NCBI GenBank assembly: GCA_000934665.2
Contig: KZ538671.1
Location: 1 to 54,809 of the forward strand
Origin: Catajapyx aquilonaris
Taxonomy: Eukaryota
Direction: 5' to 3'
Length of the DNA stretch: 54,809 bases
Each line of letters starts with the position of its first letter. Position 1 is the stretch's first letter. Below are positions 32,603-54,003 of this stretch, in pieces. A model generated the notes under the pieces. The model was not told the origin of the DNA, ran no database searches, and was given only the letters and a program-made list of their open reading frames with translations. Position numbers and translations under genes: made by a program.

Positions 32603-34316
32603 CGAAACATGATACATCATTATTTTATCCCGGAGTAATGTTGAATACTCCACTTCACTGCAGCATTGTTGAATAACTATTTTCACTCTTATTTTGCCAC
32701 TAAGCACTAACACATGTGTACACTCTATTGTTAATGGAAAATAATAATTATGACACTCTGTGCTTTAGACTATAGAGAATTTAATGACAGAGTGATGAAC
32801 CAGCCTGAAACCGCGATCTAACATATAAACATGACATTTTGGATCAAGAACGATGTTACGCGACTACGAACGTAATCAATTTAAATCACAGAATGAGAAT
32901 TTCAGATCTTCAATAATTGTAATTAGGAAAACCTGGGAACACGGGAATCCCGTCCACGAGTTGGCATCCTGCTCTGAATAACAAAATATTGAATGAAAAC
33001 GTCACGAGACCCCCTGACGTTTTTCGTGATCATGATATCCTTGGACGCAACAGTGTCACATAAAAAATACTAGTCTACGTAACATCTCTCTATCGAAGAT
33101 TTTTTTTGGAACACAATGGAACTTGTACGTCAGGATTAACCATGCAGTTGTATAATACTGGCTCTTCATAAGGAAAATATTGATTCCAGAGGAAGGAACG
33201 AAGAAACGAAGACATATTGTCAGATTTGACAGAGACGGGTAAGTAAGTCATAGTGTCATACATTATTTGACATTAAAAAAAAATGACACATATGTTAAAA
33301 AGACAAGATTGACAGTGTGGATCAGATTGAATCAGTTGAGTGTGTGGTTTGTTTATGGGAATAGGCAATAAGGTGTTAAGAGGGGGATAAAGAGAATATA
33401 TTTCTTTGTGTGTAGTGAATTATTGAGGTTTTTTGTTATTAGAGCAAACAAGATAGGTAAGTTGGTCATTTTCATTATGCATGTTATAATATTTCAGGGA
33501 TTTATTAAAGTTTTCTTGACGATCTCCTGAAAAGTGATTAAAAATGACATATAGGTACTTTCATCGTTCAACGCTTACTGTCCAATAAGCAGGTTAGGTG
33601 ATAGCATTTTTGTCATGCATACAGCATTATCTACATTCTATGCATTTAACAGAGAGCCGACAGTAGAGATGAGCATTAGTCTATGTATTAGAGATGATTA
33701 TAATATAATTTTGTTCCGAGCAATTTTCATGAGTTGGTAAGCTAAAATGATGAGGAATAAATAATTCTTAGTTGGAAACAAAAATAAATTAAATCTTACA
33801 TAAATGTGCCCATATTCATTAACTCCACAACCAAGAGCAATCAAAGACGCATGAGTGGTCGAATGAAAAGTCTTCTATGAAGGACGCGCATGTTTATAGT
33901 CACTAAATCCAGCAATTTGTCGATATGACGTCCGTATGGTCGCAAGGACGTCCAAGGAGGAAAAAAAACCATTTTCGCTAAAATATCTCGTAATCATTTG
34001 AATCATACGAAAGTAGTTTACAGCGTGGATGAATTATACGTCGTAGTATCCCAGGGCAATTAATTATTAAAAGTAGTTTGGCTCCAGATGGCACGGGCTA
34101 GGCTGGGGTAGTCAGACCACTCTTGCATTACATTTTTTTTTTGGTTAATTGTTATATCAATGTATTCGTTGGATAATTAATTGCTTAATTAATATCTGGA
34201 CATCTAGTGGCAAGAGTGAGTCATTTCAGAGGCGAAATTCCAGTAATTTCAGATTAAAATATAATCATTTTTAGATCGTAGTATATTATGTTTAACGGAG
34301 GTTTATGCTCATAATG
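32603..34316 (+). repeat. Segmental duplication block A (copy 1); paralogous to 39493-41181 and partly to 44360-44752
   Basis: Collinear high similarity from cgaaacatgatacatcattattttatcccggag to ggaggtttatgctcataatg. Confidence 0.9.
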
Positions 34317-34510
34317 GTCAGTAGTGGTCAACTTTTATTTGAAAATGATTTAATGTGTCAAGGCATGTTTAAATTATTATATAATCAGGTTCTTATCCAA
34401 GCAAAGTCAAAAGTTCTTGCATTTTCCCACGTCACTCTCCAATCACGTGTTTCAGCTCACTTTTTCATCCAATTAGTTCCAAGCGCATCACTAAAAGTTG
34501 ACACATTTTC

Positions 34511-34856
34511 TTAAAATTCTAAGCTTGTTTACTGTATATAAAAAAAGGGAAGCACACACTGTATCTTGAAGAGGCAGATATCCAGTTTTCCTCTTCTTCA
34601 TGATTTCGTATCATCGTCACAATTGACGAGGTCATTCTTGCATCATGTAAGTCTATAAAGAACCCTCGCAGGTAGGAATATACTCATTTCTCTGGTGGCG
34701 GAGAAGAATACCGTATAGTTTCTTACATTGACATACGAGGGTAAGTGAATAGATTGTCGGTAGGAATATCAGCTGCATAATATTATGCTAAGTACTGTCC
34801 GAGATTCAGTTTTTGCAGTGGCAGGACGCGAAGGGCATTATTGGTTTGGGGGGAAT
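34511..34856 (+). repeat. Duplication block B; paralogous to ~38928-39283
   Basis: Shared ctaagcttgtt...gggaagcacacactgtatc...ggcggagaagaataccgta...gaagggcattattgg. Confidence 0.85.
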
Positions 34857-35405
34857 TTTAATACTTTCAAATAGTTTACAAGCAGGTGACCTGACAATAT
34901 TTCAAGACGACAATACGTAGTGACACATCTTCCGTATAGACACAAATATGGACCCAAAATGGGTATAAAATACGGGGCTAATGTCGATGTTTGACCAAAG
35001 TTCATAACAATCAGCGTCCAAATTTGGACCCAAAACGAAGCCAAAATTATGCAGATTTAACCAACTGCTCATTTCGAAATTTCCTCAAAAGATTTTCCTC
35101 GCAAGACAGGTATCCATTACATGCGGTATTAATGCAATGAGAATTTTCCGCCTGTACTATCCGACTAGAGTACTAGACAAACGTAATTAGATCTGCTTCT
35201 TCATTCAGACACTGTGTATGAAGGAAAAGGGAGATAAAACTTTCATTCGAATCACATTAATGAAATAATATAAGCTTGTGCCTCGTGCTTACTTATGCCA
35301 AGAGCTAATCTTGCTTATACCGATTAAAAGGTGATCCTTTTATTGCTTTTGAGATGTTTCCTTACTAAATATAGTATTTGAAGATTCCTGTGAACACAAT
35401 CAAAC

Positions 35406-35568
35406 ATGGCTGAAGAGAGCAACATGAGTTGGATGCAGCGCTTTCTTATCCAGATAGTGAAGCAAGGAGATGTTCCGCGACATGTAGCTATCATTATGGA
35501 CGGAAACAGAAGATACGCCAGGAGCAAAGGGCTGCCGGTCATTCATGGGCACAGGGAAGGGTAAATGA

Positions 35569-35638
<70 letters not shown>

Positions 35639-37145
35639 TCATAAGAAGATGTTGGAGGCCCAGGAATGGTGCAGAGAGATGGGAGTGTACGCCCTAACAG
35701 CCTATGCTTTCAGCATAGAGAACTTCAAGAGGACAAAGGAAGAGGTGGATGGACTGATGGCATTGTTCGAGGAAGCGTTTCAAGATATCGTGGACAATAT
35801 GTGAGTCGTGATGTCTGAGATAAACAATTGAAGGATTGGAAAGCAAAATAGATCTTGGAAATTGTTTCACACTGCTGGACATAATAATTTATAATCAACT
35901 AGCTCATAGATTCGCAATTAAAAGTAACTGTTCCAAAGAAACTGCTAGCCTATACATATTGAGCAGTTTAGTGCCACAAATCGCAAACCACTTAGGGCAA
36001 TTTAATAGGAACATTTTGTACTGAGAATAATATGATAATGGCAATGCACATGGCTTCAATCGTTCAATGTGAGCAATATTTTCAATTATTCCAGCGACAC
36101 TTGGATCAAGAGGGGTACTCAGATCCGCGTGATGGGTCGACTGGAACTATTTCCCCAAAAACTGCAAACCCTGGCTGGACAGATCATGGAGAAGACGGCT
36201 CATTGCACCAAGGACGTCTTTACTCTGGCGGCTCCCTATACACATGTGAGTTACACCATTACCCACTTTGTTATACAGCAAGTGCGTGGTGAAGCACATC
36301 CTGGCAGGTTTGCACCCAACCACACACGGATCACGTGCAAAATATCACGCTCTGCGAGTGCTGTATTCGCATAGGAAAATGTGGTTATGCATGGTCATCT
36401 CACCCACGGTCAAATGCACTCTGAAAATGGTCGATCAGAAAATATTGGTTCCTACGGGCTACCTGTCTGCATAGTATGTTACAAATTTTCTTTCTCATCT
36501 ATGCAGCCCGTGATGACATGACCTCCGCAATTCACCAGCTGATGGACGGAGTGGGCAACGGTCTGTCAGAGGGACTGATGGAGAAGTGTCTCCAGACCAG
36601 GGACCTTCCTCCTGTGGACATGCTCGTTAGGACATCAGGGGAAATGAGGTTCTCGGACTTCATGCTCTGGCAGGTCAGTCCCAAGTGCTGCTGCAGCTTT
36701 AGGTCACTATAGTTATGTAACTACTATTTTGCAGAGCTCCTACAGCTACATTTGCTTTGAGCAAGTAACATGGCCTGAATATGGATTCTGGAACTTCCTT
36801 GGAAGCATCTTGCTCTTTCAACGTCATGCACACCATTTGAAGGTATGGTACAGTATGTCCTCTTTCGGTTTAACCAATTTACGTTATCTCCTATAAGATT
36901 GCATCATTCAACCGAACTTCACATGGTTGCTAGTATTACAAAATAATAAGCTTATATTGAAATGTTATTCGATATCACTGAATATTGACACAATCCTGTT
37001 ACAGGATCGTCTGATGAAAGCTGGGCAAGAACTGCAGAGAGAACGATTAGAAGCGGACAAGGGAAGCAGGATTAGTAGTTTCTTGCATACTCTGGACAGA
37101 AATTACGCCCAGTATGTGACGAGCCTGTCCAGTAATTCGCCATAA
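35406..37145 (+). pseudogene. DHDDS: cis-prenyltransferase (DHDDS-like) copy 1, apparently frameshifted; exons 35406-35560, 35639-35800, 36095-36245, 36507-36673, 36735-36842, 37005-37145
   Basis: Motifs [25 protein letters not shown] and [19 protein letters not shown]. Exon 3 is 151 nt versus 149 nt in copy 3 (+2 frameshift), and exon 4 lacks 18 nt. Confidence 0.75.
35570..35635 (+). repeat. (ATT)n microsatellite filling most of intron 1 of cis-PT copy 1
   Basis: ~22 perfect ATT units between the GT donor at 35561 and the AG acceptor at 35638. Confidence 0.97.
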
Positions 37146-38411
37146 AATATTGCGGCCAATAGGGAATATCAGTTCATAGAGGGTGATGGAGTGTATGCGT
37201 TGGGACCCTACCTTTCTAATGAATGGAAAAGGATCATTAATATTTTGAAATGATTTCTTTTCGTCCTTCTTTCAGTCATTGGGATGCTGACGAATTACTT
37301 TAAAGTCTGTAGAAAGTTGGTTTGCTGGGAAGATGTGACCCTAAGTGAAGGACGTTATCATTTGGGATAATTTTAATAGTTTTTGGAATATTCAGGAAAA
37401 GTTGCATTCCTGACAAAATAATCCTTCAAAAACAAAGTCCCACAATGCAATGCTTGAATTTATAAGGAATTGTCTGTAAACGCTTTGGAGTGACGGATAT
37501 GTCAATAATCTCGAATTGGTAATTGATAATAATCTGATGAGCATGCAGGATGTTTTTCTCTCCCGTCCAAGAGGAAACCCCATTTTTCCCAGGCAACGAA
37601 AGCTTCGTGCAGGCCTTACGTAAGTATGAATCGCTCGCACCTCACCACAAACCACTAATTTTGTTGTCAGAACGTGTGTTGTGCCTGCAATTACCACGTA
37701 CCGTATGTAAAGATGAAATAACATTAATTTTGAACCATTGGCGTCTGCAAGAGAGGAGATGAGTTGAATTCAGGATCAATGGAAGGAATGGAGAAATTTC
37801 TTATCCGGTCTAAACATATCCATTTCTGATGCAGTGTCGTAAATAGTGAAATCAATTGTTCAGACACCGATCTTTAGTTGACTTACAATATTCTTTATAG
37901 AATTCTGCATTCCTTCACTAATTATTGCTCTCCGAGTGAGGCAGTCTTCACCTTTTCTTCATCATCTCAGTTTGCACCTCACTCATTCGTTTCAAAAAAA
38001 AAAAAGCCGGCTTCTCATAGCCTTGAGCATGGCCAATGTAACCCAATAAAAGTCGCAGTTACTACGTTCAGAGCAAGAATGGGATAATCAAGGCAATAAA
38101 CCTAAAAAAACTCAAGACTGAGAAGATAACAAAATCATGATTTTTGCATAATAATCAATGTCAACATGCAATTTACACTTCGAGTGAGAGGTAGCGCATT
38201 ACACAATCTCATTGCGTATCATGTGGCGTAATTAAATGTATACGTAGTGTTCAACGTCATTTTCAAATTCACATGACATAAAACAACCCTGGACCGAAGC
38301 CTCAGACGTAAGGGGCTGTAATGGTTAATTTATTTTCCCATCACGATCACGAATCACGTGCTTCTTGACTTGTTCTTTCAACAAAAGCAAGCGATAAGAC
38401 AATCAATAACA

Positions 38412-38563
38412 ATGGCTGGAGAAGGCAACATCATGACTCGGATGCAGCGCTTCATGATCCAGATAGTAAGGCCAGGAGATGTTCCGCGACATGTGGCGGT
38501 CATAATGGACGGAAATAGAAGATACGCCAAAAGCAAAGGGCTGCCGGTCATAGAGGGTCACAA
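38412..38563 (+). pseudogene. cis-prenyltransferase copy 2, exon-1-only fragment
   Basis: [51 protein letters not shown], then abrupt loss of similarity; no downstream cis-PT exons before 50705. Confidence 0.85.
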
Positions 38564-38752
38564 ACCTGAAGACGTAAGTGTCCTTTTTGCCATGCAGTTA
38601 GACCATAGAGTAAAAGGAACATGTGGAAGCCTGAAGAGAGAGCATTTTCATTGTCTTTGTATATTACTGCAGCTTATTATAGATTTCTTAAGCGAAGAGG
38701 ATTACAGGACTCCAGCAGCTCCAGAATATGGAATGATGAGGAGATGATGTAA

Positions 38753-38896
38753 GAGGAGGTGGAGGAAGAAGACATGCACAACGATTTCAGGGACATCGCA
38801 GAAAAGGATGATTCTTTGGCTTTGACTGGTCTGGAGAAAAACACCGTGGAGTACATAGCAGGCTATTGGCCAAGAAATGCCTGAAAAGATTTCCGA
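38753..38896 (+). mobile_element. Decayed P-element/THAP9-like transposase C-terminal fragment
   Basis: Translates (with one frameshift) as acidic tract + LTGLEKNTVEYIAGY(L)AKKCLKRFP. The YIAGY motif is typical of P-element transposase C-termini (recognised from memory). Confidence 0.5.
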
Positions 38897-39492
38897 CGTC
38901 ACTGTCCAAGTCCAAGTCGAGAAATTTTTAAAAATCCTAAGCTTGTTCACTGTATAAAAAAAGGGCGGGAAGCACACACTGTATCATGAAGAGGCAGAGA
39001 TAGAAATTTTTCCCTATTCATGAATTCGTGATGTCGTAATGCCAGAATTGACAAGGCCATTCTTGCTTCTATTTTAACGAATTATAATGAACCTTCGCAA
39101 GTAGGAATATACGCATTTCTCTAGTGGCGGAGAAGAATACCGTAAAGTTTCTTACATTGGTATATTTACGAAGGTAATTTAATAGATTGTCGGTAAGAAT
39201 ATCAGCTACATAATTTATGAGTACTCTCCGAGATTCAGTTTTGGAGTCGCAGAACACGAAGGGCATTATTGGGTTGGGGGAATGAATATGAAATCCGTTT
39301 GCCGCTATCTTTTGCGGTTGAGACCCTGATAGGCTACCTGTCCATAAACGGACAGCCAGACAGCCAGAGCCGTTCCTTAAGACTTTTTTTTTGATGATGA
39401 GGAAAAGTCTACAACTACATACTATAACGGTATCAAAAAAGTAATAAATTGAAGGATGATTGCCAATTGCTACCTTGCTTCGTTTATAAATG

Positions 39493-41181
39493 CGAAACAT
39501 GATACATCATTATTTTATCCCGGAGTTGAATACTCCCCTTCACTGCACCATTGCCGTTGAATAACTATTTTCACTCTTATTTTGCCACTAACACATGTAT
39601 ACTCTATTGTTAATGGAAAATAATTATGACACTCTGTGCTTAAGACTCTAGAGAATTTAATGACAGAGTGATGAACCAGCCTGAAACTACGATCTAACAT
39701 AAACCTGTCGTTTCGGATCAAGAACGATGTTACACGACTACGACCGTAATAAATTTAAATCACAGAATCAGAATTTCAGATCTTCAATAATTGTAATTAG
39801 GAAAATAGAGAAACACGGGAATCCCGTCCACGAGCTGTCCTGCTCCGAATAACATAATATTGAATGAAAACATCACGAGACCCCCTGACGTTTTTCATGA
39901 TCATGTCATGTTATCCTTGGGCGCAACAGGGTCACATAAGAATATGACGTAACATCTCTTTATCGAAGATTTTTTTGAACACAATATTATGGAACTTGTA
40001 TGACCGGATTAACCATGCAGGTGTATAATGCTGGCTCTTCAGAAGGAAAAGATTGATTCCATATGAAGGAACGAAGCGACGAAGACATATTGCCAGATTT
40101 GACAAGAGACGGGTAAGTCATACTGTCATGCATTATTTGACATTTTTTTTTTCAAAAAATCGACATGTTAAAAAGACAAGATTGGCAGTGGGGATCAAAT
40201 TGAATCAGTTGAGTGTGTGGGTTGTTTATGGGAATAGGCGATAAGGTGTTAAGAGGGGGATAAATAGGATATTTCTTTGTATGTAGTGAATTATTGAGGT
40301 TTTTTGTTATTAGAGCAAACAAGATTGGTAAGTTGGTCATTTTCATTATGCATGTTATAATATTTCAGGGATTAAAATTTTCATGACGCTGTCCTGAAAA
40401 GTGATTTGAAATGACATAGGTACTTTTATCGTTCAATAAGCAGGTTAGGTGATATTTGTATACCGGTTATCATTGACTTAATCAGGCCAAAATGTGTATC
40501 TAAGCGGTGGAATATTAAATTTCGAAAATGGCACACAACACCAAGAAGTCAAATAAAAACTATTAGGAAAAATGATGCTACTTCACTAACACACAATAAA
40601 CATAAGCTAAAAATGATGAGGAATAAAAAAATAATTCTTCGTTGGAAGCAAAAAAATTAATTAAATCTTAAATGCATTTTCATTAACTCCACAATCCAGA
40701 GCAAACAATTACACAAGAGTGGCTTAATGAAAAGTCTTCTATGAAGGACGCGCATGTTCATAGTCACTAAATCCAGCAGTTTGTCGATATGACGTCCTCA
40801 TGGTCGCAAGGACGTCCGAGGGGGAAAAATTCGCGAAAATATCTCGTAATCATTTGAATCATACGAAAGTAGTTTACAGCGTGGATGAATTATACGTCGT
40901 AGTATCCCAGGGCAATTAATTATTTAAAGTAGTTTGGCTCCAGATGACACTGGCTAGGCTGGGGTAGTCAGACCACTCTTGCATAACTATTTTTTTGTTA
41001 ATTGTTACATCAATGCATTAGTTCCTCGGATAATTAATTGGTTAATTAATATCTGGACACCTAGTGACAAGAGTGAGTCATTTCAGAGGCGAAAGTGTAA
41101 GGAAATTCCAGTTTCAGACTAAAATAAAATCATTTTTAGATCGTAGTATATTACGTTTAACGGAGGTTTATGCTCATAATG
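39493..41181 (+). repeat. Segmental duplication block A (copy 2)
   Basis: Collinear with 32603-34316. Confidence 0.9.
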
Positions 41182-41384
41182 TACAATGTAAGCGTGTGAA
41201 GAAGGAGGAGAGTCGGCCAAGCGGCATGTGCTGCAGGTCGACAAAGGCTAAATAAAGCAAAAAATAAACAGAAACAAACAAAACAACAGTGTCACAAATA
41301 AATATTACGCGTAACATCTCTTTATCGAAGATTTTTTTAACACAATAATATTATGGAACTTGTACGTCAGGATTAACCCTGCAG

Positions 41385-41908
41385 TGTTAATTTTATTTTC
41401 TTCTGCATTAATAAAATTATTTTACGTACTGGTAATCACGATACCCAACTGAATCTCGCAGACGTTGATGTGAGTCATTTAAAATAACATTGCCTGACGT
41501 TCTTACACCTTGAAAAACAGCGCCAGAAACACTGCATGGCAAAGCTACGTAATATATTACGTAGCTTTGCCATGTTCTGCAATAATTAATCATATATATG
41601 ATTAATTATTGCAGAATGAGTGTTATTACTTGGCGTAACTATATACTAACCACGAGTGAAGAAATGACGCTCACCAAGATTTTCTCACTGGCCATGTGTA
41701 TTTGCCAGGTCTATAAAAGAAAGGGTACGCGTATCTCATAACTCACTTCTTGTTGCTATAGGAGAAAACATCGCAGATTAACCTACAGGTGAAGTAAGCC
41801 GTATCATCTTATAACGAAATTAAGGGTTTCAAAGTCTGCAGTGCACAATTAACCAGAAATAGGGAAATTTACCAGCCATCATTTCCGCATTTTTCAAAGA
41901 TTTGACTT
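41385..41908 (+). promoter_or_regulatory. Orphan duplicate of the cis-PT promoter plus non-coding first exon (TATA ~41712, donor GTAAGC ~41794)
   Basis: Near-identical to 53200-53695, which lies directly upstream of cis-PT copy 4; related to 50155-50236 upstream of copy 3. Confidence 0.75.
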
Positions 41909-41929
41909 TTTCTATTATTAATATTATTA

Positions 41930-43772
41930 TTATTACACGCTTTATATCAGCTTCACTTTCTTGTCTGTGAGCGGATGTTTGTGTGTCCGTGTGTCCACCC
42001 CTCTCTTCGCCATTGCCCCGCCATCTATCGGTAGGGATTAACGTTAGGGGTGATTTCGCGCCTTCCTACACCATCTAGCGGTTGGTTTTCACATTAGGTA
42101 GTCACGTGATTGGCTGTGTTCGCTACCTCCCTACCATCTGGCGGTAGAAGTCACATGATGGGTGAATTTGCATCTTCCATACCTACTAGCGGTAGTAGTC
42201 ACGTCATTGGCTGTGTTCGCTACCTCCCTACCGTCTGGCGGTAGTAGTCACATGATGGGTGAATTTGCAACTTCCATACCTACTAGCGGTAGTAGTCACG
42301 TGATTGGCTGTGTTCGCTACCTCCCTACCGTCTGGCGGTAGTAGTCACATGATGAGTGAATTTGCAACTGCCATACCTACTAGCGGTAGTCGTCACGTCA
42401 GTTGGTCCCTTGCCCCACCATCTCAGGTACTTCCGTCACCTACTTCCCCCCTTTCCACCCCTTCTTCCTTTCCACCCCATTGGTGGGGTGGGTGGGGGGG
42501 GGGGTTCTCTCCCCACACCATCTAGCGGTTGGGGTTCACATTAGGGGTGACTATGCCACATCAACGCCAGATGGCGGCAGTAGTCACGTGAGGTTGTCAC
42601 ATCGCTACACATCTCCGTCGCTACTTCCTCCACATCATCGGGAGGTAGTCACGTGATTGGCTGTGTTCGCTACCTCCCTACCATCTGGCGGTAGTAGCCA
42701 CATGATGGGTGAATTTGCAACTTCCATACCTACTAGCGGTAGTAGTCACGTGAGTCGGTCTGTTAGCAATCTCCACACCAGTCACCGGAGTTACTGGCTC
42801 TCAGTATCCAGTTCGCTTCCTCCAAACTACAGGGCGGGAGTAAATACTCCAGACTGTTTTTTAGTGACAAAGTGAAAAGATTACAAATCACAGCCTGGCA
42901 CCATTCAACTAACTCCCCATGTACTATACATCAGTCATTCCTTCCACTTTATCACTAAAAACCAGTTAAAATAAAAATATATAAAAAACCTTTTTATTAC
43001 ACGCTTTATATTAGCTTCACGTTGTCTGTGAGTGTGTGTGTCCACCCCTCCGTTCGCCCTTGCCCCACCATCTATTGGTAGGTATTAACGTAAGGGGTGA
43101 TTTCGCGCCTTCCCACACCATCTAGCGGTTGGTATTCACATTAGGGGTGACTTTCCTACATCAACGCCAGATGGCGGCAGTAGTCACGTGAGGTTCGCAC
43201 ATCGCTGCACATCTCCGTCGCTACTTCCCCTACATCATAGTGAGGTAGTCACGTGATTGGCTGTGTTCGCAATCTTCATGCCATCTAGCGGCAGTAGTCA
43301 CGTGAATGGGTGGATTTGCAACTTCCACAATTAACGTTAGGTGTCACTTCGCAACCTCAACGTCATTTGGCGTAGTAGTCACTTTAGTTTATGAGGTCGC
43401 TTCGTCTTCCACCGCATTGTTTGGGTGTCATCCGCCACTTCCACACCATTATCTGAAGGCAGTTCGGGAGGCAGTCACGTGAATGGGTGAATTTGCAACT
43501 TCCATACCTACTAGCGGTAGTAGTCACGTGAGTCGGTATGTTAGCAATCTCCACGCCAGTCACCGGAGTTACTGGCTCTCAGTATCCAGTTCGCTTCCTC
43601 CAAACTACAGGGCGGGAGTAAATACTCCAGACTGTTTTTTTAGTGACAAAGTGAAAAGATTACAAATCACAGCCTGGCACCATTCACCTAACTCCCCATG
43701 TACTTTACATATGTCATTCCTTCCACTTTATCACTAAAAACAAGTTAAAATAAAAATATATAAAAACCCTTT
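41930..43772 (+). mobile_element. Two tandem non-autonomous elements (Helitron/Helentron-like) with an internal GC-rich minisatellite
   Basis: Both units (~41930-42990, ~42995-43772) start ttattacacgctttatat(c/t)agcttcac + GT-rich microsatellite, contain ccatct(a/g)gcggtagtagtcacgtg repeats and share a ~280 bp 3' end. The family assignment is inference. Confidence 0.55.
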
Positions 43773-44245
43773 TAAAGAACACGCTTTATATTTCCAAGTG
43801 CACTAAAAAGTAGAAAATAATTTTTCTTCCTCAATCTTCAGCTTTCTCTTTTACCTTGAACTGAACAGAAGATTCATGACTTTCTTTCCATGGAATTCAG
43901 CTACTGCAGTATTGTCTTGCTTTACTTATATTCTTATACGGCCTACATGACGAAAAATAAAGCGTGGGCACTAAAATTTTAATACTGTACATGGTTATAT
44001 TTCATGCCATGGAAGTAGATAATGTGTCATTTAGTGCCCACGCTTTATTTCTCGTCATGTAGGCCGTATAAGAATATAAGTAAAGCAAGACAATACTGCA
44101 GTAGCTGAATTCCATGGAAAGAAAGTCATGCATCTTCTGTTCAGTTCAAGGTAAAAGAGAAAGCTGAAGATTGAGGAAGAAATTATTTTCTACTTTTTAG
44201 TGACCTTGGAAATATAAAGCGTGTTCTTAAAAAGATTTTTATATA
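43757..44245. repeat. Long inverted repeat (~220 bp arms, ~54 bp spacer)
   Basis: 43757-43975 is the near-perfect reverse complement of 44030-44245. Confidence 0.92.
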
Positions 44246-45025
44246 TATATTTTTACACATACAGAGTCGGCCGAGCGGCATGTGCTGCAGGCCGACAAAG
44301 GCTAAATAAAGCAAAAAACAAACAAAAACAAACAAAACAACAGTGTCACAAATAAATATTACGCGTAACATCTCTTTATCGAAGATTTTTTTAACACAAG
44401 AATATTATGGAACTTGTACGTCAGGATTAACCGTGCAGGTGTATAATGCTGGCTCTTCAGAAGGAAAATATTGATTCCAGATGAAGGAACGAACGAAGCG
44501 ACGAAGACATATTGTCAGATTTGACAGAGACGGGTATATCATAGGCCGACTGTCATCCATTATTTGACTTTTTTTAAATTTACACATATGTTAAAAAGAC
44601 AAGATTGGCAGTGTGGATCAAATTGAATCAGTTGAGTGTGTGGATTGTTTATGAGAATAGGCGACAAGGTGTTAAGAGGGAGATAAAGAGAATATATTTC
44701 TTTGTATGTAGTGAATTATTGAGGTTTTTTTGTTATTAGAGCAAACAAGATTGTAAAATCACAGCATGAGCGTGAGTAGACGAGACATTTTCTCATTCTT
44801 TCAAGTAGACTTGTACGGATAGAGTGAACCCGAAAAACTGGAAGTGGGTTCCAGTGCTTATCTCAATTTTGACGTTTTTGTGGGTTGACCCAATATTGCA
44901 TAACACCGTCCATACAGCTTCAGTGTGCAGCGACTTGAATAACACATCGACTGCGGAGCACCAACAGAAACAACTACTCCCGAGTGTCTACTACTAATAT
45001 TCCCTTTCAGAAACTTATTAAAGAG

Positions 45026-46817
45026 ATGGGGTCTAAGAACCTAGACACAGACTCTTTTTTGGCGCTGACCTCTGAGGTCATTAAGAGCCTGACCATCTCC
45101 GAAAAGCACGACCAGGGCCTGAGAGACTTTGACAGTTGGTTCAAAAAGGTCAGGACTCTAATTAGATTGTGAGCAGGTCTCTTCACACGTATTTGTCATT
45201 GCAGATGTTGAACTACAACCTTCTCGGAGGGAAACTGAACCGAGGCACGATGGTGGCCAATTCATTTTCCGTCCTGGCAGAGAAGGAAGATGTCACAGAG
45301 GAGAACATCAGGTTGGCACACTTATTGGGCTGGTGCATCGAGCTGGTCAGTTTTAGTACAGTGCTCTTGCCTGAACCATTAAGCAGAATAAATTATAAAT
45401 TTCGGAACCAATAATTCCATACGTAATGTTGTTTCCACAGCTGCAGGCAGCCTTTGTGGTGGCGGACGACATAATGGACAATTCCGAGACCAGAAGGGGT
45501 CATCCCTGCTGGTACTTGACCAACGGACTGGGGCCAAAGGCCTTCAAGGACGCCTTGCTCATGGAAAGGGCCGCCTTCAATATCATGTGGAAGTACCACC
45601 GAGACCAGACCTACTACAACAAGTGCGTCGACCTATTTAACGAGGTAATGCTCCAGAAGCGTGTTTTTAATAGAGGGAAACATTTACTCTGGGAGACATC
45701 AGGTGGTGGTCATAAACTCGCTCAAAATCGGGCTACATAACCCTTCGTGCCTGCATTATAACTACTACCCCAGGCAGCAAAGTTAATCGTTGTTATTAAT
45801 AATAATTATTGGAAACTATTATGAAATACAGACTGAGATGCATAAGTTGTGGACATGCTTTTCTTTCAAAGATTATTTTCAAAACGAAGAAGGGTCGGTG
45901 CCTGGACCTCCTGACCTCATCCGGAAGCAAGCCCCAGCTCGACCTCTGCACCGAAGAGAGATACGCAACAATAGTCAAGTACAAAACTTCATATCACTCC
46001 TTTTATCTCCCTGTGGGACTAGCAATGATCATGGTGAGAAATCTACAATATTAATTACGATAATAATTACAATAATATGTAATACAATACAGGGGGCAAT
46101 AAAAAGGCCACTTTAGAAAAAAAGCAGCACAGTAAAAATTGTCCTCACTGGAAGTCTATGAAGGATCTCATAAATAATTCACAATTTTTTTCAATGTATT
46201 CTTTCGGTGCATCTGATAAATCATGATGTAGTGTACAGTACGTATATGTTGCCACGAACATTATTAATTCACAATTACTGTATTAGGCTGGAATGTTTGA
46301 CGAAAGAAGTCAGTCGGAGGTGGAGGGAGTCCTCTTGAAGGTTGGTCACCTTTTCCAAGTCCAGGACGACTACTTGGACTGCTTCGGTGACCCAGAGGTC
46401 ATGGGGAAGGTGGGGACGGACATCGAGGAGGGAAAGTGCTCCTGGCTGGTGGTCACTGCCCTCAAGCACGCGGATCACCATCAGAAGATGGTCCTGGAGG
46501 TACTGTTGTACATCAAGGGCGCCATGTTCTTTGTTTCTTCTGGTGGCTGCTTCATGATGAATTTCTCAGCGTTTTGTTCGTGTCCTGACCTCCATCGCAT
46601 GTCCCTCCCATTTCAGAAGAACTACGGATCAGAGGACCCCAAGCACGTGTCCCTAGTTAAGAACCTCTACAGGGACCTCGGTCTCCAAGAGATGTACAGG
46701 GAGTTCGAAAATGACTCCAAGAACTCGATCCTGAAGGATATCTCCAACATGAAGAATCCGAACATGCGGGACCTCTGCACAACCTTTCTGAACAAAATCC
46801 TCGACAGGAAGCGATAA
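45026..46817 (+). CDS. FPPS: FPPS-family trans-isoprenyl diphosphate synthase, ~347 aa; exons 45026-45148, 45205-45345, 45441-45644, 45872-46033, 46287-46499, 46617-46817
   Basis: GGKLNRG, GWCIELLQA, FARM DDIMD + RRGHPCWY, YKT, FQVQDDYLD (SARM), GTDIEEGKCSWL and basic C-terminus RKR. All introns are GT-AG phase 0 and there are no internal stops. Confidence 0.93.
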
Positions 46818-47138
46818 ACGTAGCTGGCAACTAAACAGAGAAGACAACATGCTATAGTTGGTGTGAGAATGTAGTATGTATATAGTGTTATGATGAAAAA
46901 TATACACACATGCTTGCAGCAGTAGCCAGTCAGTCATGGTCAAGATTGGATCACCAGAGGAAATAAAGAGAAAACAAATTCACTTGCTTTCAGACAGTAT
47001 CAGACACCATTTCCAAGTGTTGCGAATGTCTATCCTGCCTCTCAAGTCTCAACGTACAGTTACTGTGCAAGAGAAAAAAAATATTAATCATCAAAATGCC
47101 GAGTAGGCCCTATTATGTTCGCAGACCAAAGATCCAGA

Positions 47139-47414
47139 CGGGTAAGGATGATCTAAAAAAAACATTTCACGGGGATACTACATGATGAAGTGGACATTTT
47201 TCGATCCAGAATTAATTTTTGAAATGCCAACTTAGGATTATTGTATCATTGTTATTGAGTAACAATGAGAAGGGCTGACGCTTCATAAGTGGGATATCTG
47301 ATTGTTGCTCAATAACTATTGCTAAGTTGGCAGTTTTAAAATTAATTCTGGATCGAAAAATGTCCACTTCATCACACATCCCCGTGAAATGTTTTTTTAG
47401 ATCATCCTTACCCG
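47139..47414. mobile_element. MITE-like element with ~78 bp inverted arms
   Basis: cgggtaaggatgatctaaaaaaacatttcacgggga...tccagaattaatttt and its reverse complement at 47338-47414. Confidence 0.75.
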
Positions 47415-48296
47415 ACAATAAAAATTCTCAAAAAATCCCGAAGCCAACTCCTTTCTCAGAAGCACTTAAAATGCATAACATGTTGTGTAGGTGGCATATA
47501 ATGGGACTTCCGTGCTCCACATTTTGCGGAAATCTCTAGAAAACATTTCTGGTGCAATTTCGAGTGCCATTCAAAACAAAATATCCTATTAATGAGAAAT
47601 GTGAAAAATCGTAATTTTGGACGCCATTTTGGATCCAAATTTTTGGATTTTATTAAGATGAGAATATCCATCTTACAGAGTGCGAAAATACCTTTCCAAT
47701 GCACACATCAAATTTAGGATTTGTACTTATCCTATTGGAGGTATGGTAATCCAAGTGACTGCATGAGAAGCAAAAGTCCATTCACGGGTTGCGTTTCGGG
47801 TTCTAGCTCGTGAAAGACCAAATTCGTCCTCGGAGACTTTTCGGAAATAACGGCCCGCCATGTCCAGCTTCATTTTCGGGGTCATTAAAAAATCTCAAAA
47901 GGGTCCAAGTTTGAGAAAAATTAAAATCAAAATTTGAGCGCCAATTTTTGACTTTGAATTTTTGATTCTCATAATCGTCAGTATGGCCATCCCATAAACA
48001 TAAAGCGTTAAATTAGGTATCTAACCAAGTATCCAACGCACAGATCAAGTTTCGGGTTTGTACTTATCCTCGTGGAGTTATGGTAATCCAAGTGACTTCA
48101 TGCGAAGGAAAAATCCGTATAAATTGGTAGATTCGGCACCCTGTGGTTACGCAACCACGCAACGCAGAAGTATAAAATTGTGGCTTCCTGCATAGGTCGA
48201 TGAGTAGTAGGCTACTGTACATGTCACTAAAATTTGGTCAAGGTCCTCAAGGATTTATCGGAAAGGTGGCTCGCTTGACGTGGAATGCCTCATATA

Positions 48297-48595
48297 ATAA
48301 TTAATAATTTGATACCCCATTATCAGCCTACGGGCTTTCCTAGGGGGGGATTTCTCCCAATTTTTTGTCTGGAACTCTTCCATTTTTACTATTTTTCTCA
48401 TCACCGGAATGAAGCAGGGAAAGGGTAGGAAGGAGGCGGCTGTGGCCTATATTACGGTAACGACCCCGGAATTATCCTGCAAGGACCATGGGAAACCACA
48501 GAAAACCATGGTCAGGGTCGCCGGCCTCCGGGATTCGAACCCAGGACCTCCCGATTAGCAGTCGGACACCATACCACTACACCACTACTGCTTCG
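48297..48595 (-). mobile_element. Full-length tRNA-derived SINE with 17 bp target-site duplication
   Basis: On the minus strand: A-box TGGTGTAGTGG, B-box GGTTCGAATCC, anticodon-like arm (GCT) and AT-rich tail. It is flanked by the direct repeat gtggaatgcctcatata (48280-48296, 48596-48612). Confidence 0.9.
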
Positions 48596-49433
48596 GTGGA
48601 ATGCCTCATATATACACTATGTATATGTTTATTTACAAGATGAATAAAAAAAATGAATTTAACATAACCTAAAAGCATCAAATGACTCAACTGACATTGT
48701 CACATCCATCTGATCAAAGAAAAGAGAGTGTCCCACACCTTGCCCTATAAGCCAGCCCCCAGCCGGTTTTTATTTGTGTCCTTTCCATCTTGTGAACCTC
48801 AAAAATTTCATAATAACAATAATTAATTACATGTCAGTGAGATAACTTCAATAATATATTCTACGAGAGGCAGTTCTGCAAGTTTTTATCCCCATTGTAA
48901 ACAGGGTCATTTGTTTCGCCACATTAGGAACGTCAAGGGCTATTGATGCACAAAACCGTCGATAAAATCACGTAGTCTAATTTACCTGTCAATTGTCAGC
49001 TTTGATTGCTGGCTTTTTTGATGTTGCTATATTAACATGCAAATTACACAAATTGCAACAAAATGGAGACAGGTGTTTCCCAGCCCTCTGGAACGTCTCG
49101 CACGCGTCTATTGGCACGCACACTGATAAATTATGTGTATTTTAATTATTTCTCTCTTACACATCGTCCTTGAAAGGTGAGGCAAGGTCGTCAAGAGAAT
49201 AAGAGTACTGTACTTCAATAAGGATTATTTGACACCTTGCATGACTTCCTTTTGATTTCAAAGGAAAATTAGCTGCAACTTTTATTCGACATAGTCGGTA
49301 CGAAGGGAGTAATGCAACTTACAACGTGAATTTCACATCTTATTTAAATATTTTGAGGTGACGTTACCAATTTTGAAAATTTACACAAAATTCAATTAGC
49401 AAGTATACCCATACTCTTGATGCCAAAATGTTC

Positions 49434-49494
49434 ACGCCATGTTGAGGTCACCTTGCATGAGGACACCTCATGCAAGGTGACCTCAACATGGCGT
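49434..49494. repeat. Perfect hairpin (29 bp arms, 3 nt loop)
   Basis: acgccatgttgaggtcaccttgcatgagg-aca-cctcatgcaaggtgacctcaacatggcgt. Confidence 0.95.
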
Positions 49495-50154
49495 CTGGAT
49501 CGCGCAAGCTCTAAAATAATTATATTTAATCCTTCTCTCTCTCTCTCTCTCACTAATTATATGGCGCAATAAGGCACATAGTGCGTCATGCTAGGAGAAA
49601 ACCAGGGCTTCAATTAAAAGTAACTATAATAATTCATTAGAGGATTTTGCAACGGAGCAGGTCATGCTTCTCGTGTATCATGCATTGAAGTAATCTACAT
49701 GACGGAACACACAAAGGTGTCGAAATATTTACCAGGTAGATGTAACTAACCAATATGTTTTTCTGTTAGTTCTCACAATTTTTAGCGAAATTTAAGCCAT
49801 ATTCTTTCGTGTTACGACGGAAATCCGCAAATCGCTCCAGAATGCGACAGGGGAACCCTAGATAATATTTTTTTGTTGTTGAAATTGTTATGGCAATGGC
49901 AGGTGACGAATGTTATTTGAAATTGCTGATTCCCACAGAGGTTAACGTAAGTCATTCAAAATTGGCATGATTTTCTACAGTTTCCCACGTTTTACTGCCT
50001 TGCAAAAAAGACAGACGGACATGGCATGATGAGGTCATGAGAGATGTGATTTAATTGCAAAGAAAATGATGATAATTTCTTGACGTAACTAGAACAAATA
50101 TGCTGATCATATAACTCTTACGACTCATATCTCGCCGTAGTTATTTGCCAGTAC

Positions 50155-50236
50155 TATAAAAGAAATGGCATCGCAGCGTTCACTTCCTGTTGCTGGGAGG
50201 AAAACATCGCAGATCAACTTTCAAGAGGAGTAAGTG
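50155..50236 (+). promoter_or_regulatory. TATA box and non-coding first exon of cis-PT copy 3
   Basis: TATAAAAGAAATGG...TCACTT (Inr-like)...gaaaacatcgcagat...|GTAAGT, homologous to the leader upstream of copy 4. Confidence 0.65.
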
Positions 50237-50704
50237 TCATCCTGTAACAGCAGTAACGATTTCATAATACTTAACAAGTAATATGGAAAGTTACAAGACA
50301 TTATTTTCACATTTGATATTACATGGACGTTTCCCAGCTGCCAAAAAAGAGTATTGATGTGAAAAATTAATGAAAGTTATTTAGGACTAGAAATCTCAAT
50401 ATTTAAAACTTATTCAGATTTGAGTCAACTAGTTGAGGATTAATAAGATCATTATTTTCTAGTAGTATTTATTGTGAATAATCGGAATAATCAAAAACCC
50501 AAATATTAGGATGAAAAGCAATAAAATATATTAACTCCAAAATTAAACGAAGAAAGTTACCTATACTCGAACATATTTTCGTTCGTATCATTTCATTTAC
50601 AAGGTTCTCACATTACTGGAATATGCTCCAGTAAGTTCATATCATTGAAACATCTTTAATATTGGAATCTTTGGTCAAAGGTGTCGTTGTCCAGCCAACT
50701 AACA

Positions 50705-52241
50705 ATGGCCGAAGAAAATAACCTGACTTGGATGCAGAGCTTTTTCGCTTCAATAGTGAAGCAAGGGGACGTTCCTCAACATATGGCCATCATCATGGAC
50801 GGGAACAGAAGATACGCAAGAGAAAGAAAATTGCCTCTCATTGAGGGACATAAAAATGGGTGAGAGATTATAAACAAGCACATTCCTGCCAAATGAAGTC
50901 GATCTTGGTGAGAGTTGATTCTTTCTCTATAGCCGATAGAAGTCATAGTGATTGAACTGCAATAATATAGTTATTGTGGTTTTTCTAGGGATATTCACAC
51001 AGGCGTTAATCCTAAATATGGAACACTTCTCTTTGTTGCAGCTATAAGAAGATGCTGGAGGTTCAGGAGTGGTCTAGAGCAATGGGAATCTACGCCTTAA
51101 CAGCATATGCTTTCAGCATAGAAAACTTCAAGAGGACTGATGAAGAAGTAAATGGGCTGATGGATTTGTTTGAGGAAGCGTTTCAAGACATCCTGGATGA
51201 TATGTGAGTCTCAACATGTTTTGTTGTCTGATTAATTTGTGTTATTTCCTATTTCCCGCCCAAGCTCCATAAATCTACCCACATATCCTCTGGTAGTCAT
51301 TCATTTTCCACGTCCTACATGCCACAAGATAATAACAAACGGCTCGTTTCAGCGATACGTGGATCAATCGAGACACTCAAATACGTGTGATTGGTCGACT
51401 GGAACTCTTTCCGAAAAGGCTGCAAATCCAGGCTGGACAGATCATGGAGAAACTGTCAGGCTGCAAAAAGCACGTCTTCACTCTGGCATGTCCTTACACG
51501 TGTGAGTATTCCATGACATACAAGAGTAAGGATTGGGCATCAACAAGTAACATTCATTTTCGTCCAGCCCGTGACGACATGACCTCCGCAATTCATCAGC
51601 TGATGGACGGAGTGGACGAAGGTCTGATCGAACCAGAGGACGTGTCAGAGGGACTGATGGAGAAGTGTCTCCAGACCAGGGACCTTCCTCCTGTGGACAT
51701 GCTCGTTAGGACATCAGGGGAAATGAGGTTCTCGGACTTCATGCTCTGGCAGGTCAGTCTCCATTTGCACTTTTCCTTCATTATTTGGTATGTAACAGTC
51801 ATTATCTAATTATAAATATTTTTCTGATTCAGAGTTCGTACAGTTATATCTGCTTCGAGAAAGTAACATGGCCACAGTATGGATTCTGGAATTTCCTGGG
51901 AGGCATCTTACTCTTCCAACGACATTCGTATTTCTTGAAGGTAGGATAACTATGCAGAGTATAGCTAGATTAATTGGTATAAATTAACGTGAAACCATCA
52001 GGTGGTTATCCGGATATACACGAAGACTATGATTCAAAAAGAATATTTGAATACATTTTTTTTTTACCGCCCGACAATTTTGCAGACAACTGATACTTTT
52101 TTTTTGCAGGATAAATTGAAAAGGCCGCAGGTCGAGCTGGAGCAAGAAAAATCTGACCCGGAGAAAGGAACACGAATAATTAATTTTCTGGGGAAGCTTG
52201 ACAAGAATCACATCGAGTATGTAGCGCACTTGTCACAATAA
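50705..52241 (+). CDS. DHDDS: cis-prenyltransferase (DHDDS-like) copy 3, intact, ~296 aa; exons 50705-50859, 51042-51203, 51353-51501, 51568-51752, 51833-51940, 52110-52241
   Basis: All five cis-PT conserved regions are present: [46 protein letters not shown]. The C-terminal helix is DHDDS-type ([10 protein letters not shown]) with no RxG tail, and the 891 nt spliced ORF is in frame. Confidence 0.93.
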
Positions 52242-53498
52242 TGTCGAAAAGAAATTAATGTGATTTCGCATGATAACTCCCTACACTGTTAGGATAAAGA
52301 TCACTTCTAAATTATTTTTAAATGACAGCTTGTTCTTCATTACAGTAACAAAATATTTGTCATACACTATTCGGTTTCTCTGTAGACCTCAATTGATATA
52401 ATTAGTTAAATCGGATTATTTTCATCATACGGTAGGAATCTGCTGCAGGTAGGCCTACACATGTCGTCTTAGGGCATTTCAAAATGGTGCAGTGAAAAAG
52501 CTAAGTAGACCTTCTGGGTCCATCCATTGCTTCCTATAAATAAGTGCTGATGTAACAGAAAAATAATAATTAGCAGTTCATCACTCACGCTATATAAGTG
52601 TTAGTTACATGATTCATGTTGGTGAATTCACATGCCGATCGCAATACCTTCATTGACGAGTTTTAGGAAATCTTGAATCGTACACTGTAATTCAAGTTTA
52701 TAACTATTTACTTACACTTACAACAAGACATATTATGTAATAAATAATATTAAAATGCATTTTTGTTATTGACTCTGATCGTCCAACTACCCTGAAGACC
52801 ATTTAACATCGCCTGATTCAGGTGAGTTAAATCCGGTTAAATCCTTGCTGAAAGCAGATAATGGTCTTGACGCACCTTTACTTAAGTTAATAGCGAAACA
52901 CTGATAATGGTTCAGCTTGTGCTACTTTTACGACATGCACATATTCTTTTTAAGCATATACCATAATATATCTTTCCTTTCTCACGAGTAATTAGTAATC
53001 ATTAGTATATACTCAATTTTTAGGTACAATTTTAGCTTCATGACTGTAAGGAAAAAAGAGGACCTGGAATGCAGCAAGTATTGATGGACATGGTCTTGGG
53101 ACATTTTATGGACGGTTTACCACGAGGTAGTGCAGCATTAGGGCAATCATTAGGGGCAGTGGATTGCCGACCATGCAGAAGCACATCAGTGGAAGGTAAG
53201 TGTTAATTATATTTTCTTCTGAATTAAGAAAATTATTTCACGTAATGGTAATCACGATAGATACCCAACTGAATCTCGCAGAAGTTGATGTGAGTCATTT
53301 AATATTGAGGCAACATTTCACATTGCCTGACGTTCTTACGCCTTGAAATACAGCGCGAGGAACACTACATGGCGAGGCTACGTAACATGATTAATTATTT
53401 CAGAATGAATGTTATTACTTGGCGTAACTGTACTAACCACGAGTGAAAAAATGACGCTGGCCAAGATTTTCTCACTGGCCATATGAATTTGCCAGGTC

Positions 53499-53586
53499 TA
53501 TAAAAGAAATGGTACGCGTATCTTACAACTCACTTCTTGTTTCTATAGGAGAAAACATCGCAGATTAACCTACAGGTGAAGTAAGC
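53499..53586 (+). promoter_or_regulatory. TATA box and non-coding first exon of cis-PT copy 4
   Basis: TATAAAAGAAATGG, TCACTT Inr-like ~30 nt downstream, donor GTAAGC at 53581; acceptor just upstream of the ATG at 54004. Confidence 0.7.
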
Positions 53587-54003
53587 CGTATCATCTTATA
53601 ACGACATTAAGGGTTTCAAAGTCTGCAGTGCACAATTAACCAGAAATTGGGAAATTTACCAGCCATCATTTCCGCACTTTTTAAAGATTTGACATTTTTT
53701 TTGCACGTACAGGTTTCACAGCTGCCAAAAACGTATTGATGTGTAATAGTAATTAATGCTAGTTATTTAGAATCAGAAATTGTACTGAAAATGATGCAGC
53801 GTTAAGTTAATCCGTTGAGGATTGTTGAAAACAGTTAAAAAAATTGTGAATCGTCTGAGTGTTATGAATAAAGGTTCAAATGGATTTCAGTCCGTCATGC
53901 AGTATAGCACAATACACATGTAGTGGATATGCAAGTGTTTCATTATTAACTTAATAGTATATAACTTTTTGTTTGTGATCATGACACTCAGAGTACACCA
54001 ACA

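Follow-up and report, generated by a model that had tools for sequence, protein, structure and literature searches.

A partial duplicate of a cis-PT promoter and leader exon upstream of an FPPS-like gene in Catajapyx aquilonaris

Can a gene be brought under the control of its neighbours by a copy of their promoter alone? The question is raised by a window of 54,809 nucleotides of Catajapyx aquilonaris (contig KZ538671.1, the whole stretch analysed), where cis-PT paralogs lie on one strand with an FPPS-like trans-IDS gene. A preliminary description of the window had proposed that a copied cis-PT leader splices from 41793 to 45011, so that the trans-IDS would share the promoter of the cis-PTs. 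If the copied promoter is used, this would be a clean and datable case of pathway genes in an animal cluster coming under common control through a 0.5-kb copy.

The FPPS-like gene and its cis-PT neighbours

The genes and leader modules that the argument needs are as follows.

45026-46817, + strand: FPPS-like trans-IDS coding sequence, 347 aa, six exons (45026-45148, 45205-45345, 45441-45644, 45872-46033, 46287-46499, 46617-46817)
44988-45010, + strand: FPPS acceptor CTACTACTAATATTCCCTTTCAG, with a branch-point-like TACTAAT
44766-44777, + strand: ATG AGC, then a candidate GTGAGT donor whose intron would begin at 44772, with the acceptor 238 nt further on
44263-44751, + strand: module c, a promoter/leader-like module of R type in the FPPS-proximal position, sharing 87% identity with 33048-33454 and 39924-40327
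39493-41181, + strand: R(b), a copy of the R(a) module at 86% identity; both GTAAGT donors (40113, 40328) are intact, and no cis-PT exon lies downstream
32603-34316, + strand: R(a) module, leader exon end at 33242 (GGGTAA/GTAAGT)
53992-54162, + strand: first coding exon of cis-PT copy 4 (ATG 54004; acceptor 53991)

FPPS-type trans-IDS are defined by two DDxxD motifs, and the FPPS-like protein has them as DDIMD (exon 3) and DDYLD (exon 5). Four of its six exon peptides match PF00348 (polyprenyl_synt), with exons 3, 4 and 5 scoring 53.2, 27.1 and 77.3 bits (cut-off 27) and exon 2 falling under the cut-off at 22.6 bits. When exon 5 was searched, E<=0.001 was reached by 1003 of 1007 candidates, of which the best 120 were all PF00348 proteins at 54-80% identity. 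An aromatic pair at positions -5/-4 before the first DDxxD limits the product to C15, as is known from avian FPPS. Here the sequence is AFVVADDIMD, with Phe at -4 but Ala at -5; since the latter is not aromatic we call the gene only FPPS-like.

The cis-PT assignment rests on PF01255 (Prenyltransf), matched by all four exon peptides searched (49.2 and 55 bits, above the cut-off of 27; 25.4 and 20.5 bits, below it), and on the motif IMDGNRRYA in copies 1-4. Plant terpenoid genes can cluster similarly: on tomato chromosome 8, cis-prenyltransferases lie with other terpenoid enzymes. The likeness is in several tandem cis-PT paralogs (PF01255) beside a terpenoid-pathway gene on one strand; the difference is that this window looks animal and that a trans-IDS takes the place of a terpene synthase as partner. 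A cluster of at least four cis-PT paralogs with a trans-IDS altered at the chain-length position is notable apart from any question of promoters.

The contigs used here come from X1, the one public run found to contain this stretch, whose kind is not on record; eight of its 125 placed contig pieces were viewed. They confirm introns 1 and 2 of the FPPS-like gene by GT..AG joints. A contig of depth 23.8 joins the R(a) leader to its predicted acceptor at 35375, which lies 31 nt ahead of the ATG of cis-PT copy 1 (35406), and module c is a paralog of R(a). Upstream of the FPPS-like gene, R(b) makes a second leader module that reads as an orphan.

The acceptor CCCTTTCAG ends at 45010, and, as had been claimed, 15 nt separate it from the FPPS-like ATG at 45026. 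Cis-PT copies 1, 3 and 4 show the same layout of acceptor before ATG, and by implication the FPPS-like gene has a non-coding exon somewhere upstream. Elsewhere in the window a chitin-binding-like ORF, noted by eye, would suggest an arthropod, and an N gap lies near 13.4 kb.

Block A and its match to cis-PT copy 4

The candidate promoter lies in what we call block A, with the following features and relatives.

41385-41911, + strand: block A, duplicated in part from a cis-PT 5' end of copy-4 type, 93.6% identical to 53199-53698
41535-41616, + strand: two abutting perfect palindromes of 40 and 42 nt, arms 100% complementary, in block A only
41712-41719, + strand: TATA box TATAAAAG, conserved in all three copies (block A, copy 3, copy 4)
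41745-41793, + strand: predicted non-coding leader exon, 49 nt, with its putative start at the Inr A
41794-41799, + strand: GTAAGC donor, of two adjacent GT sites the only one that copy 3 retains (as GTAAGT)
53199-53721, + strand: counterpart of block A at copy 4, either its source or a sister of that source, with TATA at 53499, predicted leader 53532-53580 and donor at 53581
50142-50314, + strand: older paralog of the promoter/leader, upstream of cis-PT copy 3, 80.8% identical to copy 4

In block A some 330 bp of upstream sequence precede the core promoter, which is followed by the leader exon and 118 nt belonging to intron 1. The duplication and its limits can be read directly from MAFFT and blastn (E<1e-10) alignments: homology with copy 4 begins abruptly at 41383/41385 and ends within intron 1. 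In a global alignment with 53199-53698, 450 of 481 aligned bases are identical (31 differences), with six indel events totalling 63 nt; an ungapped core of 268 nt (41644-41911 with 53431-53698) is 95% identical. The two halves differ. From TATA to leader end 80 of 84 bases agree, and in the intron stub 113 of 118 (K2P for the 3' half, 0.044-0.049), while the 5' half agrees at 257 of 279 and carries all six indels, so that the near identity over about 520 bp reported earlier holds for the 3' half and was overstated for the 5' half. The 44-nt indel is due to the two palindromes; no inverted repeats were found in the copy-4 counterpart of that region.

The described promoter elements are all present and intact. 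The initiator TCACTT lies at 41743-41748; its A, at 41745, comes 33 nt after the start of the TATA box. Compared with copy 4, TATA box, initiator and donor are unchanged, and one leader position in 49 differs (41755, G in block A, T in copy 4). Block A, copy 3 and copy 4 share an identical leader core, GAAAACATCGCAGAT, and TATA context, initiator and donor are also kept in all three though their flanks are only about 80% identical. Such sharing is far above chance, since the 19-nt core GCCAGNNCTATAAAAGAAA has three occurrences in the window where 0.12 would be expected, and none of 100 shuffles reached three. A TATA box about 30 nt before an initiator, maintained among paralogs, points to a TATA plus Inr core promoter.

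No cis-PT coding exon follows block A, in agreement with the preliminary description: tblastn with five cis-PT exon peptides (E<1) found none between 38564 and 50705.

Origin of block A and the later repeat cluster

41209-41384, + strand: c', a 176-bp direct duplicate of 44263-44438, being the upstream part of an R-type module and ending just 5' of its TATA-like box
41912-44254, no strand: nested foldback/MITE-like and satellite cluster of about 2.3 kb, inserted into a T-run of the block A intron stub
44255-44264, + strand: likely far end (10 nt) of the duplicated fragment, with ACACATACAG where copy 4 has GCACGTACAG (53712-53721), 8 of 10 identical

The flanking duplication is directly visible, as is the repeat insertion. 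Block A starts directly 3' of c', which matches its counterpart in module c at 170 of 176 positions (96.6%; K2P 0.035), a divergence that, set beside that of the 3' half of block A, would be compatible with a single event. In our reading a copy-4-type cis-PT 5' end, including the first ~140 nt of intron 1, is duplicated in block A as a young and truncated partial copy, which probably reached the region upstream of the FPPS-like gene, in sense orientation, through duplication with templated insertion, an event that would also have doubled 176 bp of target to give c' and c. The far end of the fragment would be 44255-44264, a short match read directly from the sequence and suggestive only; its terminal AG overlaps the start of module c. 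The 176-bp flanking duplication and a local template on the same strand are present as expected of templated insertion; both fragment junctions permit an overlap of just 2 nt (AG), weak evidence that could be due to chance.

Replication-based template switching with templated insertion at duplication junctions is known from FoSTeS/MMBIR-type events. Block A resembles these in having a short, nearby template in the same orientation placed between two copies of a duplicated target, with the 2-nt overlap allowed at both junctions; the difference is that the proposed mechanism draws here on a single locus.

The nested cluster would have entered the intron stub later, and it separates block A from its last ~10 bases. 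It comprises three units (starts 41916, 42969 and 43748); a 97-bp satellite occupies 42098-42405, and the foldback arms lie at 43763-43975 and 44030-44240. The fragment itself went into a second promoter-like module, module c. The putative intron from 41793 to 45011 would now measure 3217 nt and would be about 875 nt without the 2343-nt cluster. Acceptor-like sites were sought with a crude rule, trained on nothing (>=72% pyrimidines, YAG, no upstream AG), by which the cluster contains 12 sites rated at least as high as the FPPS acceptor, which came 13th of the 13. One strong site is at 43841 (pyrimidine tract 0.89), and the cluster also has several AATAAA motifs.

Other orphan fragments share the interval: exon 1 of cis-PT copy 2, alone (38418-38564), R(b) and c'. 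Between the copy-2 fragment and the FPPS-like gene several pieces of genes are stranded, block A among them. As it stands, the cluster of genes sheds fragments (promoter-only, exon-1-only and leader-module copies) that are raw material for rewiring. Partial and tandem duplications in Drosophila yakuba are described as shuffling regulatory elements and forming chimeric structures, with changes in expression (Rogers, Shao and Thornton 2017, PMC5460883). As that study describes such duplications, the likeness is that a duplication ignoring gene boundaries sets the promoter and 5' exon of one gene beside another; block A differs in being just a 0.5-kb fragment of promoter, leader and intron stub, moved some 9-12 kb within a paralog cluster and flanked by a 176-bp target duplication.

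Which promoter serves the FPPS-like gene

The structural half of the promoter-capture proposal stands: a duplicated promoter and first exon, with TATA, Inr, leader and intact donor, lies on the sense strand, 3.2 kb ahead of a good acceptor; none of the exons that belong to its own gene intervenes before the FPPS-like gene, and the predicted chimeric 5'UTR of block A leader and FPPS-like sequence is free of ATG. Whether the arrangement functions is a separate matter; the likeliest reading, at about even odds, is that block A is an orphan, the leftover of a partial duplication. This is favoured because the acceptor and coding exon of the source did not come along with it, because the intron stub is as conserved as the stretch from TATA to leader, giving no sign of selection on the functional parts, and because the repeat cluster with its decoy acceptors sits in the would-be intron. 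Nearer partners for the acceptor exist in module c and in the donor at 44772 with its in-frame ATG, the interval holds other orphans, and X1 contigs run through both donor and acceptor. Against it are the unchanged TATA, initiator and donor with a nearly unchanged leader, the shared strand with no intervening coding exon, the good acceptor with TACTAAT, the degraded donor of module c, and the low depth of the read-through. The equal conservation of stub and leader, moreover, cannot separate an inert copy from one in use, because the duplicate is too young (K2P ~0.05) for decay of an unused promoter.

Functional capture, in which block A would fire with copy 4 and its leader splice from 41793 to 45011, making the trans-IDS co-regulated with the cis-PTs, draws on that same intact core, leader and donor in sense orientation with no cis-PT exon between, on a strong acceptor 15 nt before the ATG reached without an upstream ATG, and on an intron that was short before the cluster arrived. 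We nevertheless consider it unlikely, its odds being lowered by the truncation of the duplicate, the 12 decoys and the two nearer candidate leaders; the AATAAA motifs in the present intron also count against it. Positive transcript support is absent among the X1 pieces viewed, where a contig at 41643-42000 is unspliced through the block A donor, beginning ~100 nt upstream of the predicted start, and another at 44701-45088 is unspliced through the FPPS acceptor (0 differences in each). These contigs have depths of 3.9 and 11 and could be DNA or unspliced precursor, and contigs can neither prove the absence of a splice junction nor show transcription starts. The intact core promoter would also suit a block A that is active but unproductive, giving a non-coding transcript that ends or splices within 41912-44254 and might interfere with a proximal FPPS-like promoter; the strong acceptor-like sites in the cluster, such as 43841, and its AATAAA motifs fit this, but the scoring of those sites is crude, and the idea seems less probable still. 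Least credible is a mis-join of repeats producing the block or the flanking 176-bp duplication. The region is repeat-rich and the window has a gap of Ns near 13.4 kb, and a bridging contig was seen for the junction of block A and cluster, not for c'/block A or cluster/c; yet the 31 differences and six indels show that block A is not a collapsed duplicate of copy 4, and the contig at 41643-42000 bridges its junction without a difference, from a run that may share the assembly's sample.

We infer that block A is inactive or has a minor role and that the FPPS-like gene has its main promoter elsewhere; the gene most probably starts in the proximal module c at 44.3-44.8 kb. The equivalent of the leader donor in module c, at 44534, is degraded to GTATAT (score 3 vs 6 in R(a) and R(b)), and the gene may use the strong donor at 44772, which scores 5, the same as the block A donor. 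Splicing from 44772 to 45011 would put the ATG at 44766 in frame with that at 45026 (MS + KLIKE + MGSK...).

Arrays of alternative first exons with their own promoters and a common acceptor are known from UGT1A and the clustered protocadherins, and R(b), block A and module c likewise stand in series upstream of one acceptor, 45011. Those systems have coding variable exons of documented use; the leaders at this locus are non-coding and predicted only, one donor is degraded, and the modules come from two unrelated promoter families, R(b) and c from that of copy 1 and block A from that of copies 3 and 4. It is doubtful that all three act as alternative first exons joined to 45011. If they did, the trans-IDS would be wired into each cis-PT expression programme by local promoter duplication, and an animal terpenoid gene cluster would be building co-regulation module by module. 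The base at 41755 (G in block A, T in copy 4) and the junction 41793-45011 tell the block A leader from that of copy 4.

The prenyltransferase gene cluster

The genes for prenyl-chain enzymes form one cluster in the window, all on the same strand:

35406 (ATG), exons to about 36845, same strand as the rest of the cluster: cis-PT copy 1
38418-38564: cis-PT copy 2, exon 1 only
45026-46817: FPPS-like (trans-IDS) gene, six exons, 347 aa
ATG near 50705: cis-PT copy 3
54004 (ATG): cis-PT copy 4, interrupted by the window end

In family profile searches PF00348 was matched by four of the six FPPS-like exon peptides, and PF01255 by all four cis-PT exon peptides tested. Both DDxxD motifs are present in the FPPS-like protein, as DDIMD and DDYLD. 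In FPPS enzymes the residue five positions ahead of the first DDxxD (position -5) is aromatic, and a change there in the avian enzyme leads to a longer product. Here the position is occupied by Ala, not an aromatic residue (AFVVADDIMD; exon 45441-45644), and judging by sequence the enzyme may make a product other than C15.

Protein searches found no close relative. Relatives of FPPS exon 5 were 54-80% identical among the 120 matches listed, and for one cis-PT exon none of four candidates was a hit; PF01255 clusters in Atlas were generic only. By analogy, the cluster may be likened to the cis-PT-containing terpene clusters of plants. A literature search, in the portions of text open to it, found no publication on an animal cis-PT/trans-IDS cluster, which does not prove that there is none.

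Exon 1 of cis-PT copy 2 is 67% identical to that of copy 4, its reading frame continues across the donor position, and later exons were not found; copy 2 is a gene fragment. Copies 1 and 3 share 117 nt at 100% identity (36564-36680 and 51643-51759) and are 77-83% identical elsewhere, a pattern that suggests gene conversion. This identity accounts for a false-looking contig joint from 36670 to 51830.

A duplicated cis-PT promoter and its origin

Upstream of the FPPS-like gene lies block A (41385-41911), a partial copy of the promoter, leader and intron 1 stub of cis-PT copy 4. The duplicated promoter and leader are real, and their origin can be reconstructed. The preliminary description had called the block nearly identical to the copy 4 leader region, and alignment bears this out: 41383/41385-41911 aligns to 53199-53698, with 450 of 481 aligned bases identical and six indel events totaling 63 nt. 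The elements it had recognized are all in place, namely a TATA element (TATAAAAG at 41712), the Inr-like TCACTT (its A at 41745), a non-coding exon of some 50 nt (predicted leader 49 nt, ending at 41793) and a GTAAGC donor beginning at 41794. The block A and copy 4 leaders differ at one position, 41755 (G versus T).

An older third copy of the core lies upstream of cis-PT copy 3. It has the same initiator, TTCACTTCC, the same sequence around the TATA box and GAAAACATCGCAGAT as the core of its leader, and its donor is GTAAGT; its conservation supports the earlier choice of the second GT (41794) as the block A donor. Since the core is conserved despite flanks only about 80% identical, it supplies the best available argument, a comparative one, that this is probably a genuine cis-PT promoter with its leader. 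Three instances of the leader core, and likewise three of the TATA context, are present, all of them at block A and at cis-PT copies 3 and 4; this search ruled out a diverged, third-type copy of the block A leader close to the FPPS-like gene or to cis-PT copy 1. As first described, no cis-PT coding exon follows block A, which rules out an intact cis-PT gene beginning at the block. Block A also contains two perfect, abutting palindromes of 40 and 42 nt (41535-41616), of each of which copy 4 has one half only. This is reminiscent of footprints left by hairpin-type repair to either side of a break, or else of copy 4 having undergone a deletion.

Similarity to copy 4 sets in abruptly at 41385 and ends within the source intron 1. 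Directly 5′ is a 176-bp segment (41209-41384) identical at 170 of 176 positions to 44263-44438, the beginning of a promoter-like module proximal to the FPPS-like gene (44263-44751, here c). Between block A and 44263-44438, at the T-run where similarity to copy 4 breaks off, lies a repeat cluster:

41912-44254: repeat cluster
41916, 42969 and 43748: starts of three repeat units sharing one AT-rich opening terminus, ...ACACGCTTTATAT
42098-42405: 97-bp satellite
43763-43975 and 44030-44240: arms of a near-perfect foldback

Past the cluster, ACACATACAG (44255-44264) matches the next copy 4 bases, GCACGTACAG, at 8 of 10 positions, and both block A insertion junctions permit a 2-nt AG overlap. K2P distances are 0.035 between the 176-bp segment and c, and 0.044-0.049 between the 3′ half of block A and copy 4, values that would fit one recent event.

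We infer that the region upstream of the FPPS-like gene received a sense-orientation copy of a 0.54-kb piece corresponding to 53199-53721, probably by template switching during replication or repair. The same step would have duplicated 176 bp of the target, and the repeat cluster would later have been inserted into the intron stub of the copied piece. Transposon carriage of block A (Helitron or Pack-type capture) is rejected: the block lies outside the inverted-repeat-bounded cluster, it directly contacts the 176-bp target duplication, and copy 4 homology apparently resumes past the cluster. An Rfam search of 39000-49000 gave no matches. The region may be compared with alternative-first-exon arrays. 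In Drosophila, partial duplications place promoters and 5′ exons before other genes and alter expression (PMC5460883); block A would therefore not represent a new mechanism.

Promoter-like modules upstream of the FPPS-like gene

The insertion target of block A is itself a promoter-like module. Its portion 44338-44751 is 87% identical to 33048-33454 and 39924-40327, which belong to two R-type leader modules:

32603-34316: R(a), upstream of cis-PT copy 1
39493-41181: R(b), 86% duplicate of R(a), GTAAGT donors intact at 40113 and 40328

No cis-PT exon follows downstream of R(b), so that a second leader module stands orphaned ahead of the FPPS-like gene.

X1, a run of unrecorded type, was the only public sequencing run with the stretch (0.30 of the words sampled), and no RNA run was listed for it; its contigs were placed on 35000-54809, with eight of 125 pieces listed. 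Introns 1 and 2 of the FPPS-like gene appear in X1 as GT..AG joints, and so it contains spliced RNA or equivalent. One X1 contig, whose depth (23.8) equals that of the cis-PT copy 1 exons, has a part ending at 44536, an extra A, and then 35375, which is preceded by a TATAG acceptor and lies 31 nt upstream of the copy 1 ATG. Its letters GGGTA+A fit R(a) exactly (GGGTAA/GTAAGT, exon end 33242) but not c, which reads GGGTAT. The stretch used for placement does not include R(a), and the contig was presumably put on c as its closest match there. This one contig points to splicing of the R(a) leader, 2.1 kb upstream, to copy 1 (33242 to 35375). Because that leader would serve copy 1 and the block A-type core is found at copies 3 and 4, the cluster appears to use two promoter families: copy 1 would have the R type, and copies 3 and 4 that of block A. 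Orphan copies of both precede the FPPS-like gene: R(b), block A and c.

The favored reading, at about even odds, is that block A is a stranded partial duplicate and that transcription of the FPPS-like gene begins proximally. The R-type donor in c is degraded to GTATAT (score 3 versus 6). A strong GTGAGT donor lies at 44772, 238 nt before the FPPS-like acceptor, and is preceded by ATG AGC (44766-44777 including the donor), whose ATG would be in frame with that at 45026 if spliced; use of this donor would start the protein seven residues earlier (MSKLIKE-MGSK...). The preliminary description had proposed splicing of the block A leader to the FPPS-like acceptor (41793 to 45011), and it placed that acceptor correctly: its end is at 45010, with 15 nt between it and the ATG at 45026. 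Such a capture we consider possible but unlikely. The core promoter and donor of block A are intact, block and gene share a strand with no exon between them, the acceptor is good and is accompanied by TACTAAT, which resembles a branch point, no uATG would occur in the chimeric leader, and the would-be intron started out short, at about 875 nt. However, the intron stub is conserved (113/118) like the functional core (80/84), so the preservation of block A reflects youth, not selection; a 2.3-kb repeat cluster now lies within the would-be intron and contains 12 acceptor-like sites that, by a crude rule, equal or exceed the real acceptor in pyrimidine content; and nearer donors and a nearer promoter-like module are present. 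These points are against capture or neutral.

The 41793 to 45011 junction is not among the four joints listed in X1 (two more were dropped at repeats), where contigs cannot show absence. Two contigs without differences from the window read through, one (41643-42000, depth 3.9) unspliced at 41793 and the other (44701-45088, depth 11) at 45010; they show that unspliced molecules exist, without excluding spliced ones. That block A is an active but unproductive promoter is improbable in our estimate, and that the arrangement is an assembly artefact, highly so. X1 gave no cover over 46898-48219, the greater part of 48881-51524, or 52186-54809, where copy 4 lies together with its leader, and these stretches were left out as evidence. 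Abundant spliced FPPS-like contigs, at a depth of about 148, carry six listed differences from the window (45115, 45241, 45300, 45985, 45988 and 45995), and one departs from it immediately past the stop codon (loose end at 46818), giving a different 3′UTR. They may derive from a near-identical paralog or a divergent allele, and thus give nothing certain on this locus.

Other features of the window

The repeat at 48220-48880 reaches a depth of about 1836 in X1 and is therefore high-copy or highly expressed. By eye it has a tRNA-related look; ARAGORN found no tRNA genes in 48200-48800. The remaining features were named by eye, apart from the gap:

4274-5467, + strand: BTB/MATH-like ORF
8002-8979, - strand: KH/Tudor-like ORF
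near 13.4 kb: N gap
15058-17121, + strand: Gln/Arg-rich repeat ORF, 687 aa, with 18- and 30-nt tandem repeats
18649-19304, - strand: chitin-binding-like ORF
20110-22055, - strand: MFS transporter-like gene

A protein search with the KH/Tudor exon gave one match, at 53%.
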